This document shows positions 1 to 13,448 of a DNA stretch of 57,055 nucleotides, one piece after another (within the stretch, counting starts at the first letter, position 1; every line of letters begins with the position of its first letter). Made by a program: the position numbers and the translations under genes. The notes beneath the pieces are model-generated. The model was not told the DNA's origin and did no database searches. It saw nothing but the letters and a program-made list of their open reading frames with translations. The stretch is from Gammaproteobacteria bacterium (GTDB lineage: Bacteria; Pseudomonadota; Gammaproteobacteria; WOZS01): NCBI GenBank assembly GCA_011620135.1, contig WOZS01000040.1, forward strand, positions 5,341 to 62,395, read 5' to 3'.

Positions 1-86
1 TCGCTCCTGACGCCGATCATGGCCTTGGCCTGTTCATAGCTGCCCTGGGCAATAGGCAACCCCGTGCGATCGGCTGCATGCTTCAT
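1..86 (-). CDS. 5' end of a CDS running off the window (MKHAADRTGLPIAQGSYEQAKAMIGVRS...); product uncertain, possibly a MaoC/FAS1-like dehydratase N-terminus
   Basis: ATG at 86 preceded by AAGGAG with 5-nt spacing; open frame to the window edge. Product guess rests on only 28 residues. Confidence 0.5.
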   Translation of the reverse strand, partial: MKHAADRTGLPIAQGSYEQAKAMIGVRS

Positions 87-357: not shown

Positions 358-1452
358 TCAGGGCATCCGGGCCAGGATGGCCACAGGACCACCCCCCAGG
401 GGGCCATGGTGTTCGGCCCGGGTGGAGACATAGACTGCGGTCTCGCCGGTCAGGGTTGCCAGCACCGTGGAGACCACAGCGCGGGCATGGCGGGTATCGG
501 CGATGTCATCGTCACTCCACATGGTGTGGCGCCGGCTGCGCACGCTGCCCCGGGGATCGGCATCGGCCTTGGCGAAGATGCCCACCAGACGCGCGGTCTC
601 CTGGGGCCTGAGCTGGCGCGATGCGTCGAAACCCAGCTGTGTCAGCACGGCGCGTACCGCCTCTGCATCGATGATGTCCTGCATGACGCCATGGGCCATG
701 ACCAGGTCGCCGCCATAATGGGCCACGTTGGCGAAGAGCACGATCTCGCTGCGCACCAGACCTGGCTTGGAAGAGCAGCTGGCCACGGAGGAAAAGAGCG
801 TGTAATCCCTGGCAATCCGCTCGTCGGTGATCTCGTCTGATGCCACCTCGCCTGTGGCCACGGCGACACCCAGGGCGCTGGCGGCCCGGGAATGGACCAT
901 ATCGCAGCGCAGGGGCTGCCCTGCTGCAGCGGCAGCGTGCTGCTCGGCGGCGCTCACCGCAGGAATGGCTCCTTTGATCTGCACCAGGTGCACATCGGCC
1001 GGAGCGGCCACCGCCAGCTCCTGCATCAGGCGGCGCACCGTGCTGGCTGTCTCCTGGACCATGGCCACGCGCCCCACCTCATGGGGCGCAAAGTCCCTGG
1101 TATGGCCCACCGCCACGGCGAGACGCTTGCTGCCCGGCTGTGGCGTGCCCTCGTCGAGACGCGCCAGCACCAGCACATGGGGCGAGACCACCCCTTCTGT
1201 GCCGCCGGAAAAGGACAACACCACCTGCTCCTCGATGGCCTCCCGGCTGCTGCCGGCAGCCTCTGCCAGGCAGTCGGCATAGGCGCGCACCGCAAGCTCC
1301 CTGGAAAAATCATTGCGCCCGCCGTTTCCTTCGGTCTTGCCGATCACGGCGATCACCTGAGCCGCCTCGATCTCGCCCTGGTCAAGTACGGTCTGCAGGG
1401 CCGCGCAGTCCGATGGGGAAGCAGTGAGCAGGCGCCGCGCCCAGATGCGCAT
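358..1452 (-). CDS. Ring-opening amidohydrolase, cyanuric acid hydrolase (AtzD)/barbiturase family
   Basis: Family motifs GKTEGNG..NDFSR, SGGTEG..SPH, QIK, SRAASALGVA, ASCS, FAKA, RRHTM..D.DI, RHARA, EHHGP.GGGPV. Start placed at ATG 1452, which overlaps the upstream stop (ATGA); 364 aa fits the family size. Confidence 0.9.
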   Translation of the reverse strand: MRIWARRLLTASPSDCAALQTVLDQGEIEAAQVIAVIGKTEGNGGRNDFSRELAVRAYADCLAEAAGSSREAIEEQVVLSFSGGTEGVVSPHVLVLARLDEGTPQPGSKRLAVAVGHTRDFAPHEVGRVAMVQETASTVRRLMQELAVAAPADVHLVQIKGAIPAVSAAEQHAAAAAGQPLRCDMVHSRAASALGVAVATGEVASDEITDERIARDYTLFSSVASCSSKPGLVRSEIVLFANVAHYGGDLVMAHGVMQDIIDAEAVRAVLTQLGFDASRQLRPQETARLVGIFAKADADPRGSVRSRRHTMWSDDDIADTRHARAVVSTVLATLTGETAVYVSTRAEHHGPLGGGPVAILARMP

Positions 1453-2030
1453 CAGCCCGTTACCTGGATGGTAACCCCCAGGTGACGGGCCAGCTCCAGC
1501 TTGTAGACATCGCCTGTGTCCATGTCCTGAGGACTGGCCATGGCAGCAAGCGCCTCCACCACCTCGGCCGAGTTCATGGTCAGCACCACCACGGGATTGG
1601 CGAGCGCCAGGGGAAAATCGTGCCAGGTGCCACAATGGAGGATGATGCCGTGGCCTGGGGGAAAGCGCAACGCCGTCAACTGGTTCAGGTCTGGGGTCTT
1701 ACCCTGGGGATTGGGCTTGCCCAGCACCAGGGCGAACGGCTCCCCGCCCAGACCTACGAACAATTGGCTCAGGCGCAGGTGGCGCTCCAGCCAGAAGACC
1801 TCCATGGGCCGGGGGCTGATGCGCGCGGTGCGCACCACGCAGCGTTCGTGATAGTGAAAGTCCAGGTTGGCGCCTTCTTCCACGCTGCCCTTGTAGAACG
1901 GAATGGCAAGCCCGGGGCGATGTACGGTCTCACCCAGCATCACGCCATAGGGTGCTACGCGTTCTGCAGTGGCGTCCTCCAGGGGGAGGGCATGCACAAC
2001 TGGTGCAGTGGCCTGGTGTGTTGTCGACAT
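1452..2030 (-). CDS. Ureidoglycolate lyase/hydrolase-like cupin protein
   Basis: LERH..SQLF motif, F..G.GI.LH.GTWHDFP motif, 192 aa. Confidence 0.8.
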   Translation of the reverse strand: MSTTHQATAPVVHALPLEDATAERVAPYGVMLGETVHRPGLAIPFYKGSVEEGANLDFHYHERCVVRTARISPRPMEVFWLERHLRLSQLFVGLGGEPFALVLGKPNPQGKTPDLNQLTALRFPPGHGIILHCGTWHDFPLALANPVVVLTMNSAEVVEALAAMASPQDMDTGDVYKLELARHLGVTIQVTG

Positions 2031-2072: not shown

Positions 2073-2546
2073 TCAGTATCCGCTGTCGCGATTGATCTGC
2101 CGATCATGCTGGTCCTGTCTGTCCTGCAATTTTTTCTCCAGGCTCTGGCGAATCCCGAATAGGTCGGGCCGCTCATCGCCCGTGTGGCTCGGGTCCAGCT
2201 GTCCCTGTGCCGTTCGTGTCTGCTGTGTTTCTGGGGCCATGGTGAAGGCTGGTGGGACAACGGGCGCAGGGCTCACGGCACGCGGTGCATCAACCATGAT
2301 GCGCTCTGCACCGCGTTGCGGTCTATCCGAGAGGTGCTCGACGCCGTCGGCATCCGTCCAGTGATAGAGCACTGTCCTGGCGGTCTTGGGCTGTGGATCG
2401 CCCCAGCCGAAGGGCAGGTGGTCGTTCAAGACGGCGCGCAACTGCTGCATGCGATGTCCCAGGGCACCATCCTGCAGCCTGTTGTAGCCAATCCACAACG
2501 CCAGGGCCAGCAGGGCGCCAAACCAAAAAAAAAGCGATCGAGCCAT
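2073..2546 (-). CDS. DUF4124-domain membrane-anchored protein
   Basis: N-terminal hydrophobic helix; LYHWTDADGVEHLSDRP is the typical DUF4124 signature; GGAG upstream. Confidence 0.8.
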   Translation of the reverse strand: MARSLFFWFGALLALALWIGYNRLQDGALGHRMQQLRAVLNDHLPFGWGDPQPKTARTVLYHWTDADGVEHLSDRPQRGAERIMVDAPRAVSPAPVVPPAFTMAPETQQTRTAQGQLDPSHTGDERPDLFGIRQSLEKKLQDRQDQHDRQINRDSGY

Positions 2547-2654: not shown

Positions 2655-4163
2655 TCAGAAATAGTAAAACACAAACAAACCGATCTTCCAGGGATCGGCG
2701 GCACGGCTGCCGGTTTCCCTGTCATTATAGAGATCACCTGCAAAAATGTAGTCCATTTCCTGCATCACGGAAAGATGCTTCGTGAAGAAATATTCAAGCG
2801 TGGCATCCAGCTCGGTGCCCACGTCCCTGTTTCCATTGCCCCCAAAGCGCCGAGGACTGCCCTTGGTGGCCCAGAGCTTGTAGAGCCCGGCATCCACCGT
2901 GAGGTTCGGGCTGATCCAGGGAAGAGTGGTCTTGAGGTAGGGCCCCAGCATCTGTACCCCAAGCTTCATGCCGGTGTTGGGGTCGATGGCGGTGAGCTGG
3001 TAGTTATAGGTCAACGACCAGCCATAGTCGAAGAACAGGTATGAGCCCAAATAGTCGCCATCCACCCCCCACCAAGCGCTGTCCTTGTTGTCGCCGGGGT
3101 TGTTGTCCCCGCTGGAATAGGCGTATTTCAGTCCTGCCTGGGGATTGCTCATGAAGCCCAGGCTAGGCCCCTCGGCCAGCTTATAGTCCAGGGTCAGCAC
3201 AGCAGCGCTGGCATCCCGGTTGAGGCGCTTTTCGTCAAGATTGGTCTTGCCGTCCAGGTAGATGGCGTTGGCGGTGAAGCCCCAGGGTGCTGGGTCCTTC
3301 TGCAGGTAGGCGCCGGTATAGTTGCTGTTTGAATGATTCCCACCCAATCCTGGATACTGGACGTTCTTTTTGTCCCGCACCAGATATTCGTAGAGCTTGA
3401 AGCGGGTGGTGGCATTGATGCGATAGACGCTCTCCAGCGTCCACAGGTTGATCTCGTCGCTGAAATAGCTGTGCCCCAGGTCAAGGTAACCCAGGCGCAA
3501 CGCCACAGGGTCCAGCAGGTCGGTGGTGGAGACCAGCACGCCTTCATAGCCATCGGCAATATGCCGGTCGTCATCGCCGTTGGCCTTGCTGGCGATCCCC
3601 ATGCCACCGTTGCCCCCAAGCACCAGTGTGTTGGGATCACTCCAGGCGCTGTGCCATTCGGTATACACCGGTTCATTGAAGGGCAGCATGCCGGCCTGGA
3701 TGCGTATCCCGTGGGTGAGATAATCCGCATAGAGAAAATCCACCAGGTTGTTGGGCGTTTGGCCTTGGGAAACCGTGCCGGTCATGATGTCGGCGCGCAT
3801 GTGAAAGGACAGGTTATCGCCGGTATACAGGTGCAGCCAGGGGCGGATACGGATGTATTCGTCCTCTATCCGATCCCCTTTCTGAAAGGAACTGCTGGGC
3901 CTGAAGCCGCCCTGGCCATCGGGCTCGAAGCCGCTGACCACCTCACCTGCCCCATAGCTGGTGGTATAGGTGGCCGCGTTGTTCAAAAAAGGACTCAGCT
4001 GGGCATTGTAGAATCCGGCAAAGGTATACCCCCCTACCTCCAGGCGCATGCCATTGCTGAAGGTGAAGTTGAGGTCCTCCCAGTCATTCTTGGCCGCTGG
4101 CTCCTGGGCTATCGCCGTGCCACAGACCAACCAGAGCATCACAAGCCGCCACTCGTTTTTCAT
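2655..4163 (-). CDS. Uncharacterised outer-membrane beta-barrel protein (alginate-export/porin-like)
   Basis: Sec signal ending AIA-Q, aromatic-rich alternating strands, DVGTELDATLEY strand, C-terminal Phe (FVFYYF). Start at ATG 4163 with GAGAGGGG upstream. Confidence 0.75.
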   Translation of the reverse strand: MKNEWRLVMLWLVCGTAIAQEPAAKNDWEDLNFTFSNGMRLEVGGYTFAGFYNAQLSPFLNNAATYTTSYGAGEVVSGFEPDGQGGFRPSSSFQKGDRIEDEYIRIRPWLHLYTGDNLSFHMRADIMTGTVSQGQTPNNLVDFLYADYLTHGIRIQAGMLPFNEPVYTEWHSAWSDPNTLVLGGNGGMGIASKANGDDDRHIADGYEGVLVSTTDLLDPVALRLGYLDLGHSYFSDEINLWTLESVYRINATTRFKLYEYLVRDKKNVQYPGLGGNHSNSNYTGAYLQKDPAPWGFTANAIYLDGKTNLDEKRLNRDASAAVLTLDYKLAEGPSLGFMSNPQAGLKYAYSSGDNNPGDNKDSAWWGVDGDYLGSYLFFDYGWSLTYNYQLTAIDPNTGMKLGVQMLGPYLKTTLPWISPNLTVDAGLYKLWATKGSPRRFGGNGNRDVGTELDATLEYFFTKHLSVMQEMDYIFAGDLYNDRETGSRAADPWKIGLFVFYYF

Positions 4164-4200
4164 AGCCACCCCTCTCATACGCCTGTTGGGTGGCACAGGA

Positions 4201-4217
4201 TGCAGTTTTCTTGCCAA
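4201..4217 (-). promoter_or_regulatory. Candidate sigma54 (RpoN) -24/-12 promoter for the beta-barrel gene
   Basis: Minus strand TTGGCAAGAAAACTGCA: exact GG-N10-GC spacing, close to YTGGCACG-N4-TTGCW, about 40 nt upstream of the ATG. Confidence 0.6.

Positions 4218-9368: not shown

Positions 9369-9373
<5 letters not shown>
9346..9373 (-). promoter_or_regulatory. Sigma32 (RpoH) heat-shock promoter of clpB
   Basis: Minus strand CTTGAA-N14-CCCCCAT matches the CTTGAA...CCCCAT consensus, about 55 nt upstream of clpB; the -35 overlaps the uvrA stop codon. Confidence 0.85.
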
Positions 9374-12206
<2,833 letters not shown>

Positions 12207-12272
12207 GAGGGCTTGCAGTGCATGATTCAGTCCAGAGAAGGTGACAACCGGCAAGGATTGGTCATCGACAGT

Positions 12273-13448
12273 ATGACCGCCCCGACCCCCCTGGGCAAGG
12301 TGATGGCCTGGGGGGGCATTGGCGCGCTGCTGGCGGTGCTGGCCTGCCGCATGATGGCTGTGTTCATCGCCTATCCGGTGCTGGCCACCTACGCCCATGG
12401 CCTTGCCGGCAGCAACACAGCACGGGTCGGTCTGGCCCTGGGCGCCTATGGGCTCACCCAGGCGCTGTGTACCCTGCCGCTGGCCATGCTCTCCGATCAC
12501 TTCGGGCGCAAGCCGGTGATCGGCTGCGGGCTGCTCCTGCTGGGTCTGGGCAGCGTCATGGCGACGCAGGCCCATCATATCGGCACGCTCATCGCCGCCC
12601 GCGCCATGCAGGGGTCAGGGGCCGTGGGAGCCAGCATCATGGCTGCACTGGCCGATCTTTCTCCAGGCAACTCCAGGACCATGGTCATGGCTGGTGTCGG
12701 CATGGTGATGGCCGTTTCATTTGCACTGGCCTTTCTCCTGGGCCCTCTCTTGGCCGCCCATGGCGGTCTCTCCACTGTCTTTTGGTTTACCGCCGCCATG
12801 ACCGGGGTTGCCATGCTGGCGTTGCTGCTGGCCGTTCCCCATCGGCCGGCGGGCATGGCGCGGCGCACCGTGGGCAGCTTGCTGGGCCGGGTCTGCGTGG
12901 ACCTGTGGCCACTGCACGCCGGCATCGCCATGCTGCACATCTCGCTTGCAGCCGTCTTCCTGGTGCTGCCGGCCATGCTGCATGCAAGCGCTCCCCATCT
13001 GCACGGCACCATGCTCTATGGCTGTGCCCTGCTCATCTCCTTTCTCATCAGCATGACCGGCATTGCCCTGGCGGAACGCGCCCGGCGCACCACGCTGCTT
13101 GCCGGCAGCGCCGTGGCTGCGCTGTGTATCGGCTGTCTGCTGCTGGCCTGGCACCATGGTCTCGTCATCCTGGTGCTGGGCATGGTGATCTATTTCAGCG
13201 GCTTCAATGCCCTGGAGGCCTTGCTGCCGTCGCTGACCTCGCGGCGCGCCCCACAGCCGGCCGTGGGCACGGCCATGGGGGTGTTCAGCACCTTTCAGTT
13301 CCTGGGCATTTTCATTGGTGGTGCGCTGGGGGGCCTGGTGGCGGCATACAGTGTCTGGCTGCTGCTGGTCAGCATGGCCATCCTGCCCTTGCTGTGGTTT
13401 GCCGTAGGCCAAAAAGGGCTTGCCGTACCGCAAGGACCTGCCATCTAG
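12273..13448 (+). CDS. MFS transporter (YajR-like)
   Basis: GAYGLTQA, LSDHFGRKP motif A, GFNALEALLPSL, G.AMGVFST.QFLG.F.GG; conserved uvrA-MFS-ssb order. Confidence 0.9.
   Translation: MTAPTPLGKVMAWGGIGALLAVLACRMMAVFIAYPVLATYAHGLAGSNTARVGLALGAYGLTQALCTLPLAMLSDHFGRKPVIGCGLLLLGLGSVMATQAHHIGTLIAARAMQGSGAVGASIMAALADLSPGNSRTMVMAGVGMVMAVSFALAFLLGPLLAAHGGLSTVFWFTAAMTGVAMLALLLAVPHRPAGMARRTVGSLLGRVCVDLWPLHAGIAMLHISLAAVFLVLPAMLHASAPHLHGTMLYGCALLISFLISMTGIALAERARRTTLLAGSAVAALCIGCLLLAWHHGLVILVLGMVIYFSGFNALEALLPSLTSRRAPQPAVGTAMGVFSTFQFLGIFIGGALGGLVAAYSVWLLLVSMAILPLLWFAVGQKGLAVPQGPAI

Follow-up and report, generated by a model that had tools for sequence, protein, structure and literature searches.

The AtzD/barbiturase family of ring-opening amidohydrolases unites the cyanuric acid hydrolases, AtzD and TrzD (EC 3.5.2.15), with the barbiturases, which cleave the same bond of a cyclic amide (PMC3758960). 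Peat et al. (2013) divided 68 members of the family into six groups (PMC3758960). Among these, Group IV consisted of six sequences from Acidithiobacillus caldus, thiooxidans, ferrivorans and ferrooxidans and from Sulfobacillus acidophilus, marked by Arg195, Met or Thr321, Arg325, Thr345 and Arg346 in AtzD numbering; the group was noted as unlike both known activities, and an acidophile-specific role was suggested (PMC3758960). The sections of that paper available to us report no substrate, partner gene or pathway for Group IV, and the one tested enzyme beyond the two known activities that they mention belongs to Group V (PMC3758960). No assay or described function of a Group IV enzyme was found in the literature searched, with supplements and some key family papers lying outside that search; a paper on the reductive uric acid pathway makes no mention of the AtzD/barbiturase family. 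Here, a Group IV gene is described from a 57,055-nucleotide stretch of a gammaproteobacterial contig (WOZS01000040.1, positions 5,341 to 62,395), referred to below as the window, where it occupies positions 358-1452 of the minus strand. This enzyme and a divergent protein related to ureidoglycolate lyase (AllA), encoded directly upstream, appear to handle a urate- or purine-derived ureide, neither cyanurate nor barbiturate, a reading to which a probability of roughly 60% is assigned.

Translation of the gene gives an open frame of 364 amino acids (protein P0001) with no internal stops. Its ATG at 1452 shares one base with the TGA stop of the gene before it (TGATG), and this start is supported by that overlap and by the length of homologues, about 357-370 amino acids; a longer frame from a TTG at 1635 was rejected as the gene start, since homologue lengths do not back it. 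The protein is a full-length member of the family, with scores above the curated cut-offs of both PF09663 (Amido_AtzD_TrzD; E 6.4e-125, 417.4 bits against a cut-off of 25, profile positions 4-358 of 358) and TIGR02714 (ring-opening amidohydrolase; 354.7 bits against 153.1). Among solved structures, the nearest matches come from cyanuric acid hydrolases, namely the Moorella enzyme, TrzD and AtzD (E 2e-90 to 8e-78), led by 6dhj and 6bum at about 2e-90; barbiturase (E 4e-65) and the Group V protein 5hy0 (E 2.5e-51) rank behind them. The PDB title of 5hy0 is 'orotic acid hydrolase', with the chain named 'Ring-opening amidohydrolase'; if that title reflects its activity, carboxylated rings are already within the range of the family. 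An AlphaFold model of P0001 built on a 25-sequence alignment (pLDDT 90.1, pTM 0.91) matches solved relatives in Foldseek with TM scores of 0.83-0.89 (6dhj 0.89, 4bvq 0.88, barbiturase 5hwe 0.86), and it predicts the three-domain, pseudo-threefold Toblerone fold. The profile matches and the fold model thus bear out the family assignment that a sequence-only reading of the window had made.

That reading had also held that the catalytic residues are retained, and all nine of them align with those of solved cyanuric acid hydrolases. The three lysines are K39, K160 and K295 (in GKTEGN, QIKG and FAKA), the three serines S82, S227 and S343 (in SGGTEG, ASCS and VST), and the three arginines R51, R189 and R324 (in FSR, HSRAAS and HARA). 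By domain, the sets K39/S82/R51, K160/S227/R189 and K295/S343/R324 match the residues of the Moorella enzyme and AtzD. S227 is the domain-2 serine, which is the proposed nucleophile position of the family; in the enzyme of A. caulinodans, a Ser226/Lys156 dyad was proposed in this role (PMC4051656). Additionally, the C-terminal metal loop A-E-H-H-G-P-L-G-G-G-P and D297 of P0001 align, at the level of sequence, with A350-G358 and E301 of the Moorella enzyme.

Around this intact core, several small residues are replaced. The codons of Ser343-Thr344-Arg345 (418-426, minus strand; cgg at 420-418 is Arg345) encode the domain-3 serine and two residues that are Gly-Gly in all cyanuric acid hydrolases, so that S343-T-R-A-E-H-H-G-P stands where Moorella has S347-G-G-A-E-H-Q-G-P. 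The codons of Ser227-Ser228-Lys229-Pro230 (763-774, minus strand) cover the domain-2 serine and a changed loop aligned to S231-A232-G233-V234 of Moorella, with CS-S-K-P-G in place of TS-A-G-V-E. Moreover, Lys160-Gly-Ala-Ile-Pro164 (961-975, minus strand) gives Q-I-K-G-A-I-P for the Q-I-K-C-P-L-L of cyanuric acid hydrolases, one residue longer in the alignment, and A-K-A-D takes the place of A-K-A-E. Each of these four substitutions, as listed in the sequence-only reading, was confirmed by alignment to solved relatives.

The affected positions are well described in solved homologues. In the Moorella enzyme, one arginine and an adjacent backbone amide from each domain form each of three oxyanion sites, the backbone of Gly348 binds a substrate carbonyl and ring NH and lies 3.2 Å from C5 of barbiturate, the carbonyl of Ala232 contacts a ring nitrogen, and the S347-Q353 segment connects the substrate with the Ca2+ loop (PMC6557486). 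Positions 345 and 346 of AtzD were likewise named as specificity determinants (PMC3758960). Since solved homologues contact the substrate at these places, the changed residues of P0001 lie at substrate-contacting positions. It is plausible, judging from the residues themselves, that such bulky side chains accommodate an asymmetric substrate.

The substitutions are not private to this genome, which had been put forward as a sign of decay. A homologue search with P0001 gave 3858 proteins at E ≤ 0.001 among 8000 candidates scored, and the best 120 were examined for motifs. All of these 120, ranging from 90% down to 49% identity and including proteins from Acidihalobacter, Nannocystis, Melainabacteria and Obscuribacterales, carry S-[AS]-K-P, S-T-R-[AS]-E-H and K-G-A-[ILV]-P. 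The A-K-A-D/E position is D or E throughout the clade and thus stays acidic, so that the metal ligand is retained at the level of sequence. A comparison of 29 clade rows of the Ser-Thr-Arg (S-T-R) type with 28 rows of the S-G-G/K-C-P type, requiring at least 90% conservation in the clade and at most 10% in the others, yielded ten clade-specific positions: S80, G161, A162, R182, K229, P230, R234, D319, T344 and R345. Added basic residues make up four of the ten. T344 and R345 are invariant in 29/29 clade rows, against glycine at both positions in 28/28 of the others; K229 and P230 are also invariant in all 29, and the K229 position is glycine in 93% of the 28 comparison rows. Furthermore, G161 occurs in 93% of clade rows where the others have cysteine in 100%, and A162 sits in a gap column for the latter.

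Phylogenetic placement agrees with this pattern. An unrooted tree of 107 full-length family members was computed with IQ-TREE (LG+G4, quick search, SH-aLRT support); it comprised 17 clade members among the best relatives, 71 representatives of 330-420 amino acids from an exhaustive search, 16 proteins of named genome loci and three further proteins (AtzD from pADP-1, AtzD from Rhizobium johnstonii 3841 and a plasmid-borne TrzD-like protein). Eleven truncated or frameshifted proteins were left out (P0126, P0153, P0159, P0160, P0184, P0185, P0194, P0206, P0217, P0221 and P0226). P0001 falls in a clade of 30 rows (29 S-T-R and one S-S-R) with an SH-aLRT of 100. All reference cyanuric acid hydrolases (AtzD of pADP-1 and of Rhizobium 3841, the TrzD-like protein and the Bradyrhizobium enzymes) sit instead in the S-G-G/K-C-P group, so the clustering within characterised cyanuric acid hydrolases that would have spoken against a separate clade is not seen. 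A barbiturase representative (P0143, 685 bits to 5hwe) lies in a third region of the tree; at the positions of R189 and R324 it carries Asn and Lys.

The clade of P0001 corresponds to Group IV. P0001 carries the complete Group IV signature (R189, T320, R324, T344, R345) and shares its clade with two Acidithiobacillus proteins (L013 and L014). Its identity to Acidithiobacillus members is 51-55%, including 52% to a copy on an A. caldus plasmid. Only Acidithiobacillus and Sulfobacillus members were known at the time of the original grouping, and the sections available to us give them no substrate, partner gene or pathway (PMC3758960). The S-T-R clade now spans Myxococcota, Acidobacteriota, Melainabacteria, Bacillota and Gammaproteobacteria, and Group IV is thus widespread well beyond acidophiles. 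The suggestion of the sequence-only reading that the gene represents a candidate new substrate class is supported in substance: the clade is distinct and conserved, but the subgroup and its Thr/Arg signature had already been described as Group IV in 2013 (PMC3758960).

One alternative is that P0001 is an ordinary cyanuric acid hydrolase which feeds carboxybiuret to AtzEG/AtzH-like enzymes, as in atzDGEH, and acts on natural or anthropogenic cyanurate. The protein scores above the cut-off of the NCBIfam cyanuric acid amidohydrolase equivalog NF052395 (394.4 against 360 bits), several sources label clade members 'cyanuric acid amidohydrolase', the solved structures that match it best are cyanuric acid hydrolases (45-46% identity), and the two arginines that separate these from barbiturase are kept (PMC9118981). 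With the AtzD and TrzD structures 4bvq, 5t13, 6bum and 4nq3, it shares the fold (TM 0.87-0.89), 42-46% identity, the three Ser-Lys-Arg triads and the C-terminal metal loop with its acidic ligand. However, the diagnostic cyanuric acid hydrolase motif S-G-G-x-E-x-Q-G-P-x-G-G-G-P reads S-T-R-A-E-H-H-G-P-L-G-G-G-P in P0001 and fails at positions 2, 3 and 7, the last being His for the motif Gln (PMC9118981). Of the AtzD signature Arg195, Thr321, Arg325, Gly345 and Gly346, the Arg, Thr and Arg are kept whereas 345/346 are Thr/Arg (PMC3758960). Beyond S-T-R for S-G-G, P0001 differs from AtzD and TrzD in S-[AS]-K-P-G for S-A-G-x-E and K-G-A-I-P for K-C-P-L-L, and the tree places it apart from the clade in which all of its characterised cyanuric acid hydrolases fall. 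The genomic setting, described below, also departs from that of cyanurate degradation, and this alternative is considered unlikely.

The most consistent feature of that setting is the gene directly upstream of the amidohydrolase (1452-2030, minus strand), which encodes a divergent AllA-like protein of 192 amino acids with the ureidoglycolate lyase fold (P0002). Its TGA overlaps the amidohydrolase ATG by one base, and a GGAGA lies 7 nucleotides ahead of its own ATG. P0002 matches PF04115 with 43.4 bits (cut-off 23) and the best NCBIfam AllA equivalog with only 42.2 bits against a cut-off of 260; its best solved relative is 2bdr (E 5e-05). These profile scores place it in the ureidoglycolate lyase fold family but not among the AllA equivalogs. 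A complex prediction for P0001 with P0002 scored 0.00 in two runs made without controls, and has no bearing on binding either way.

Pairing was surveyed in both directions. Genome contigs were profile-scanned with an alignment of the clade and 80 loci were kept, 16 of the S-T-R type (L003-L017 and L028) and 64 of other types. In 14 of the 16 S-T-R loci, or 14 of the 15 that have room for it, the amidohydrolase gene is immediately preceded by an AllA-like gene on its own strand. The two exceptions are L006, which leaves no space upstream, and L017, where space exists but the AllA-like copy is missing. Such a gene is present in none of the 64 other loci, which counts against the reading of P0001 as a cyanuric acid hydrolase. 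Conversely, metagenome contigs were scanned with an AllA-like alignment, 80 loci again being kept and room being defined as at least 700 nucleotides. The amidohydrolase is directly downstream in 54 of these, present but non-adjacent in one, missing despite room in 16, and without room in nine. Every full-length amidohydrolase copy in the AllA-like metagenome loci is of the S-T-R type (41/41). No real fusion of the two proteins was found among long matches: P0123, P0186 and P0190 were rejected as their extensions are unrelated, and P0207 looks like frameshifted read-through.

Conservation of this kind bears on a further explanation, that P0001 is a relic, decaying or without catalytic activity, and that the changes in its active site record lost function. 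In its favour, glycines invariant in active cyanuric acid hydrolases are replaced. However, the frame is open, the nine triad residues are intact, the replacement residues are themselves invariant across phyla, the pairing and translational coupling are conserved, and the model is confident (pLDDT 90.1). This explanation is therefore hardly credible.

The AllA-like loci that carry no amidohydrolase offer a second view of the lyase. In seven of these 16 (L110, L133, L134, L135, L144, L151 and L152), the gene directly upstream of the AllA-like gene resembles PuuE allantoinase. The encoded proteins belong to the polysaccharide-deacetylase family; four that were tested score 147-169 bits with TIGR03212 (cut-off 424.6), and PDB 3cl6 matches one PuuE-like protein at E 3e-32. 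Beside the PuuE-like and AllA-like pairs lie genes for subunits like those of xanthine dehydrogenase (XDH) or a flavin amine-oxidase-like gene. Examples of such loci are L110:6944-9353, L133:786-3143, L134:3655-6990 and L152:3570-5143, with XDH-like proteins about 28-30% identical to Acidithiobacillus XDH. The other nine loci are uninformative, five of them lying among cell-division and cell-wall genes. From the PuuE-like pairing it follows that the AllA-like subfamily partners either of two unrelated ring-opening ureide hydrolases. Classical allantoin catabolism by PuuE and AllA similarly pairs a ring-opening ureide hydrolase with a urea-releasing lyase, although both partners of the Group IV module are far from the canonical enzymes and two hosts carry both systems.

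Gene neighbourhoods, compared by coverage-filtered clustering and by gene calls based on third-position GC content (GC3), fall into two main organisations. The first, type A, is found on an A. caldus plasmid, in two Acidithiobacillus genomes, in Acidihalobacter, in a gammaproteobacterial metagenome-assembled genome (MAG), partly in a Bacillota MAG and in about ten metagenome loci. It runs from an NCS1-family permease through a guanine deaminase-like amidohydrolase, adenosine deaminase, a NUP-like gene and the Mo, FeS and FAD subunits of XDH to the AllA-like gene and the amidohydrolase. After these follow XdhC, a DUF4089/AtzG-like gene, an AtzE-family amidase, HpxZ (annotated by RefSeq as an 'oxalurate catabolism protein'), MobA, gamma-glutamyltransferase and finally a LysR gene in divergent orientation. 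On A. caldus plasmid p1 (L083, NZ_CP026329.1 18598-43671), an inserted ISL3-family transposase gene separates the AllA-like gene from those of the XDH subunits, with IS256 and IS5 nearby; these insertion sequence (IS) elements suggest that the whole purine cluster is mobile in Acidithiobacillus.

Type A loci also speak to the known cyanurate operon. They share with atzDGEH of pADP-1 the order amidohydrolase, AtzG-like, AtzE-family and AtzH/HpxZ-like, and with Klebsiella-type HpxWXYZ the gamma-glutamyltransferase as well, which lends some support to a cyanuric acid hydrolase function. Unlike atzDGEH, XdhC is inserted, the AllA-like gene precedes the amidohydrolase and no AtzF was seen. Esquirol et al. 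(2018) described atzGEH clusters as rarely associated with atzD homologues (PMC6219798). No biuret hydrolase or allophanate hydrolase was seen adjoining the gene in the loci examined; its neighbours are purine genes, contrary to what a cyanuric acid hydrolase would be expected to have.

The second organisation, type B, occurs in Nannocystis, Myxococcales, Holophagales, Blastocatellia, Melainabacteria/Obscuribacterales and many metagenome loci. Here, the next gene after the pair encodes a fusion protein of about 820-910 amino acids, in which a PcaD/RutD-like alpha/beta-hydrolase is joined to a thiamine diphosphate (ThDP) enzyme that meets NF006203 ('thiamine pyrophosphate-requiring protein') with 563-576 bits. 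Among 59 clustered S-T-R loci, 18 contain the fusion and six a PanE/ApbA-type reductase. Its gene is located at L005:9102-11723, L015:9101-11554, L012:2894-5494 and in 15 further loci, immediately following the pair in genomes of Myxococcota, Acidobacteriota and Melainabacteria; NF006203 is a model without assigned function, and the PanE/ApbA-like reductase often stands next. The fusion is a candidate for an oxo-acid or acyl-urea processing enzyme. Taken together, the xanthine dehydrogenase, guanine and adenosine deaminase-like and HpxXYZ-like oxalurate genes fit the link to purine or pyrimidine oxidation products that the sequence-only reading had drawn.

P0001 could also be a barbiturase-type enzyme of the oxidative pyrimidine pathway, with the XDH-family neighbour acting as a uracil/thymine dehydrogenase, barbiturate or 5-methylbarbiturate as the ring and the AtzE-family protein as ureidomalonase. 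Barbiturase belongs to the same family and fold, cleaves the same bond and has a substrate that is asymmetric at ring position 5; the Acidithiobacillus XDH-like large subunit falls below every xanthine dehydrogenase equivalog cut-off, which leaves room for another substrate, and an amidase lies downstream. However, the barbiturase signature of Asn195, His321, Lys325, Val345 and Ser or Ala346 is replaced in P0001 by Arg, Thr, Arg, Thr and Arg. In the Rhodococcus enzyme (5hwe), two of the three arginines are Asn and Lys and 345/346 are Val/Ser, whereas P0001 keeps all three arginines, and the barbiturase P0143 sits in a different clade. The Thr that faces C5 and the added basic residues contrast directly with the hydrophobic Val of barbiturase. 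Moreover, guanine deaminase-like and adenosine deaminase genes in the cluster do not suit pyrimidine breakdown, and the AllA-like lyase would be left without a role. A barbiturase function is accordingly judged quite improbable.

The purine gene content of the host genomes gives further context. The window's genome (2.1 Mb, 100% complete by markers) encodes XdhA/XdhB (TIGR02965, 1111 bits), urease and adjacent guanine deaminase-like and adenosine deaminase-like genes beside amtB. An AtzG-like and AtzE-family pair lies on another contig, beside a gene for an FAD-binding protein; that stretch (contig C27, L084:2829-7860) holds a metallophosphoesterase, a 476-residue FAD/NAD(P)-binding protein (PF13454), a 73-residue AtzG-like protein and the AtzE-family protein (550 bits, cut-off 461). 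An AtzH/HpxZ homologue was not detected in this genome by tblastn. It also gave no match to uricase PF01014, 5-hydroxyisourate (HIU) hydrolase PF00576, 2-oxo-4-hydroxy-4-carboxy-5-ureidoimidazoline (OHCU) decarboxylase PF09349, allantoicase PF03561 or PuuE TIGR03212, and its sole PF04115 match is P0002.

Among the 16 other S-T-R genomes, an XdhB-like gene (E ≤ 1e-50) is present in 15, above the equivalog cut-off in five, with allantoicase in four and PuuE above cut-off in two. OHCU decarboxylase was found in 2 of the 17 S-T-R genomes, compared with 28 of 48 genomes that carry other family members (Fisher p = 0.0014) and 5 of 14 control genomes (p = 0.20). The 48 comparison genomes derive from the 64 non-S-T-R loci, with 16 left out, mostly further Bradyrhizobium. 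The scarcity of OHCU decarboxylase is suggestive only, because the genomes are not independent owing to kinship and most are MAGs of unstated completeness.

On this basis, a two-gene module may be proposed. The Group IV amidohydrolase would open a planar cyclic ureide at one of its ring amide bonds by the hydrolytic Ser-Lys chemistry of the family, with three oxyanion sites formed by arginine and backbone amides. The translationally coupled AllA-like protein, in the manner of ureidoglycolate lyase, would probably release urea from a carbinolamine-type ureide that is made or used within this series of steps. The module would be placed in purine catabolism downstream of xanthine dehydrogenase, with a urate-derived ring as its substrate. 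Released urea could pass to the host urease, as found in the window's genome, and the leftover oxo-acid or acyl-urea could go to HpxXYZ/AtzGEH-like amidases or, in other hosts, to the hydrolase-ThDP fusion and the PanE-like reductase.

As for the ring itself, a six-membered 2,4,6-trioxopyrimidine type with a polar or anionic C5 group, at the level of 5-hydroxyisourate, alloxan or dialurate, is tentatively favoured, because all three arginines are kept, unlike in barbiturase, and because the changes cluster where C5 of barbiturate sits. A five-membered hydantoin-type ring such as 5-hydroxyhydantoin, parabanate or an allantoin analogue is more doubtful; the PuuE-like stand-in and the glyoxylate-style downstream genes argue for it. 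Chemically, HIU hydrolysis is the same N1-C6 ring cleavage as that of barbiturase, and it is a step for which no known gene was found in most S-T-R genomes. A fuller scheme is possible, though rather speculative. In it, the pair would supply the missing enzymes of an undescribed purine branch without uricase-family, HIU hydrolase or OHCU decarboxylase genes, opening a ring at the 5-hydroxyisourate or alloxan level (or a derived hydantoin), expelling urea and bypassing allantoin. Oxalyl- or mesoxalyl-urea or glyoxylate would then go to HpxXYZW-type amidases or the ThDP/hydrolase fusion, and the atzD-atzGEH operon would descend from such a cluster.

Several observations weigh against a purine-derived substrate, beginning with the NF052395 score given above. 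The pairing is not obligate for the lyase, because 16 of the 71 AllA-like loci with room have no amidohydrolase. In the window, no purine gene adjoins the pair, whose neighbours are a DUF4124 gene on one side and, in convergent orientation, a MoeB/ThiF-like gene on the other. Among 27 metagenome loci with at least 1500 nucleotides after the amidohydrolase, the fusion follows in 12 and an AtzE-like gene in six, and neither is seen in nine. No oxidant that would convert urate to a ring of the 5-hydroxyisourate or alloxan level was identified. Two S-T-R genomes (G055 and G056) do carry OHCU decarboxylase and, in the same two of 17, HIU hydrolase. Uricase PF01014 was found in 0/17, a search that did not extend to HpxO- or PuuD-type urate oxidases or to AllB allantoinase, and since most host genomes are MAGs of unstated completeness, 'not found' is not equal to 'absent'. 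Furthermore, G041 and G052 also carry a canonical cluster with a GntR regulator, an allantoin racemase-type gene, PuuE, allantoicase and AllA, plus a permease in G041. The canonical AllA of these two hosts scores 131-155 bits, versus 43 for the AllA-like protein. Because they have the canonical set too, the module is not merely the allantoinase and allantoicase of its host, and the idea of a second allantoinase plus allantoicase was set aside as weakened by the racemase-PuuE-allantoicase-AllA cluster.

Some of these points would also suit a ureide from outside purine breakdown, for instance a cyclic amide of environmental or xenobiotic origin or the acidophile metabolite envisaged by Peat et al., with purine neighbours by coincidence. 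Neither the window nor the nine metagenome loci has an adjacent purine or downstream module, the gene is patchy (an S-T-R amidohydrolase was found in 0/40 same-class relatives of the window's genome, which suggests an accessory, horizontally moved trait), and the A. caldus copy lies on a plasmid among IS elements. Yet XDH subunits adjoin loci that clearly differ in organisation and sequence, on either strand (71-80% versus 39-45% identity to Acidithiobacillus XDH), including five of the nine without a downstream module, where they lie on the opposite strand. The PuuE-like and AllA-like variant also stands beside XDH-like subunits, and the clade occurs in the non-acidophiles Nannocystis, Melainabacteria, Acidobacteriota and Holophagales. 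A ureide of this kind carries a low probability.

The remaining surroundings of the pair in the window may be described briefly. A 157-residue DUF4124 protein is encoded at 2073-2546 (minus strand), its stop 40 nucleotides from the AllA-like start, and co-transcription with the pair is possible. Further upstream, 2655-4217 (minus strand) encodes a 520-residue protein with a weak match to Alginate_exp, an outer-membrane channel family. Downstream of the amidohydrolase, an open frame at 1-85 (minus strand) was rejected as a gene, as it runs antisense into the end of the plus-strand MoeB/ThiF-like gene and into masked bases. These bases, read as N at L002:5240-5340 just ahead of window position 1, break the 3' end of the MoeB/ThiF-like gene, so that the sequence beyond the amidohydrolase is legible only in part. 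A UvrA-like frame at 9369-12578 (minus strand) begins with about 120 low-complexity residues rich in Gln, His and Gly, and its true start probably lies further downstream than the first ATG.

Five findings appear to be new: the wide spread of the clade, the conservation of its lyase partner, the setting among purine genes, the replacement by a PuuE-like protein and the scarcity of classical urate-to-allantoin genes in the hosts. The NCBI equivalog model and labels of the Joint Genome Institute (JGI) call clade members cyanuric acid amidohydrolase, although both published sequence criteria fail. Gene counts for cyanuric acid and triazine degradation potential are probably inflated, because Group IV members carry that label. 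The pair is also a concrete candidate for unknown steps of purine nitrogen salvage, because it adjoins xanthine dehydrogenase where classical urate-to-allantoin genes were mostly not found. The cyanuric acid operon has been regarded as a recent assembly from separate sources. Natural purine clusters in which an atzD-like gene stands next to atzG/E/H-like genes suggest where it may have come from and, if true, the herbicide-era atzD-atzGEH operon would descend from a natural purine cluster.

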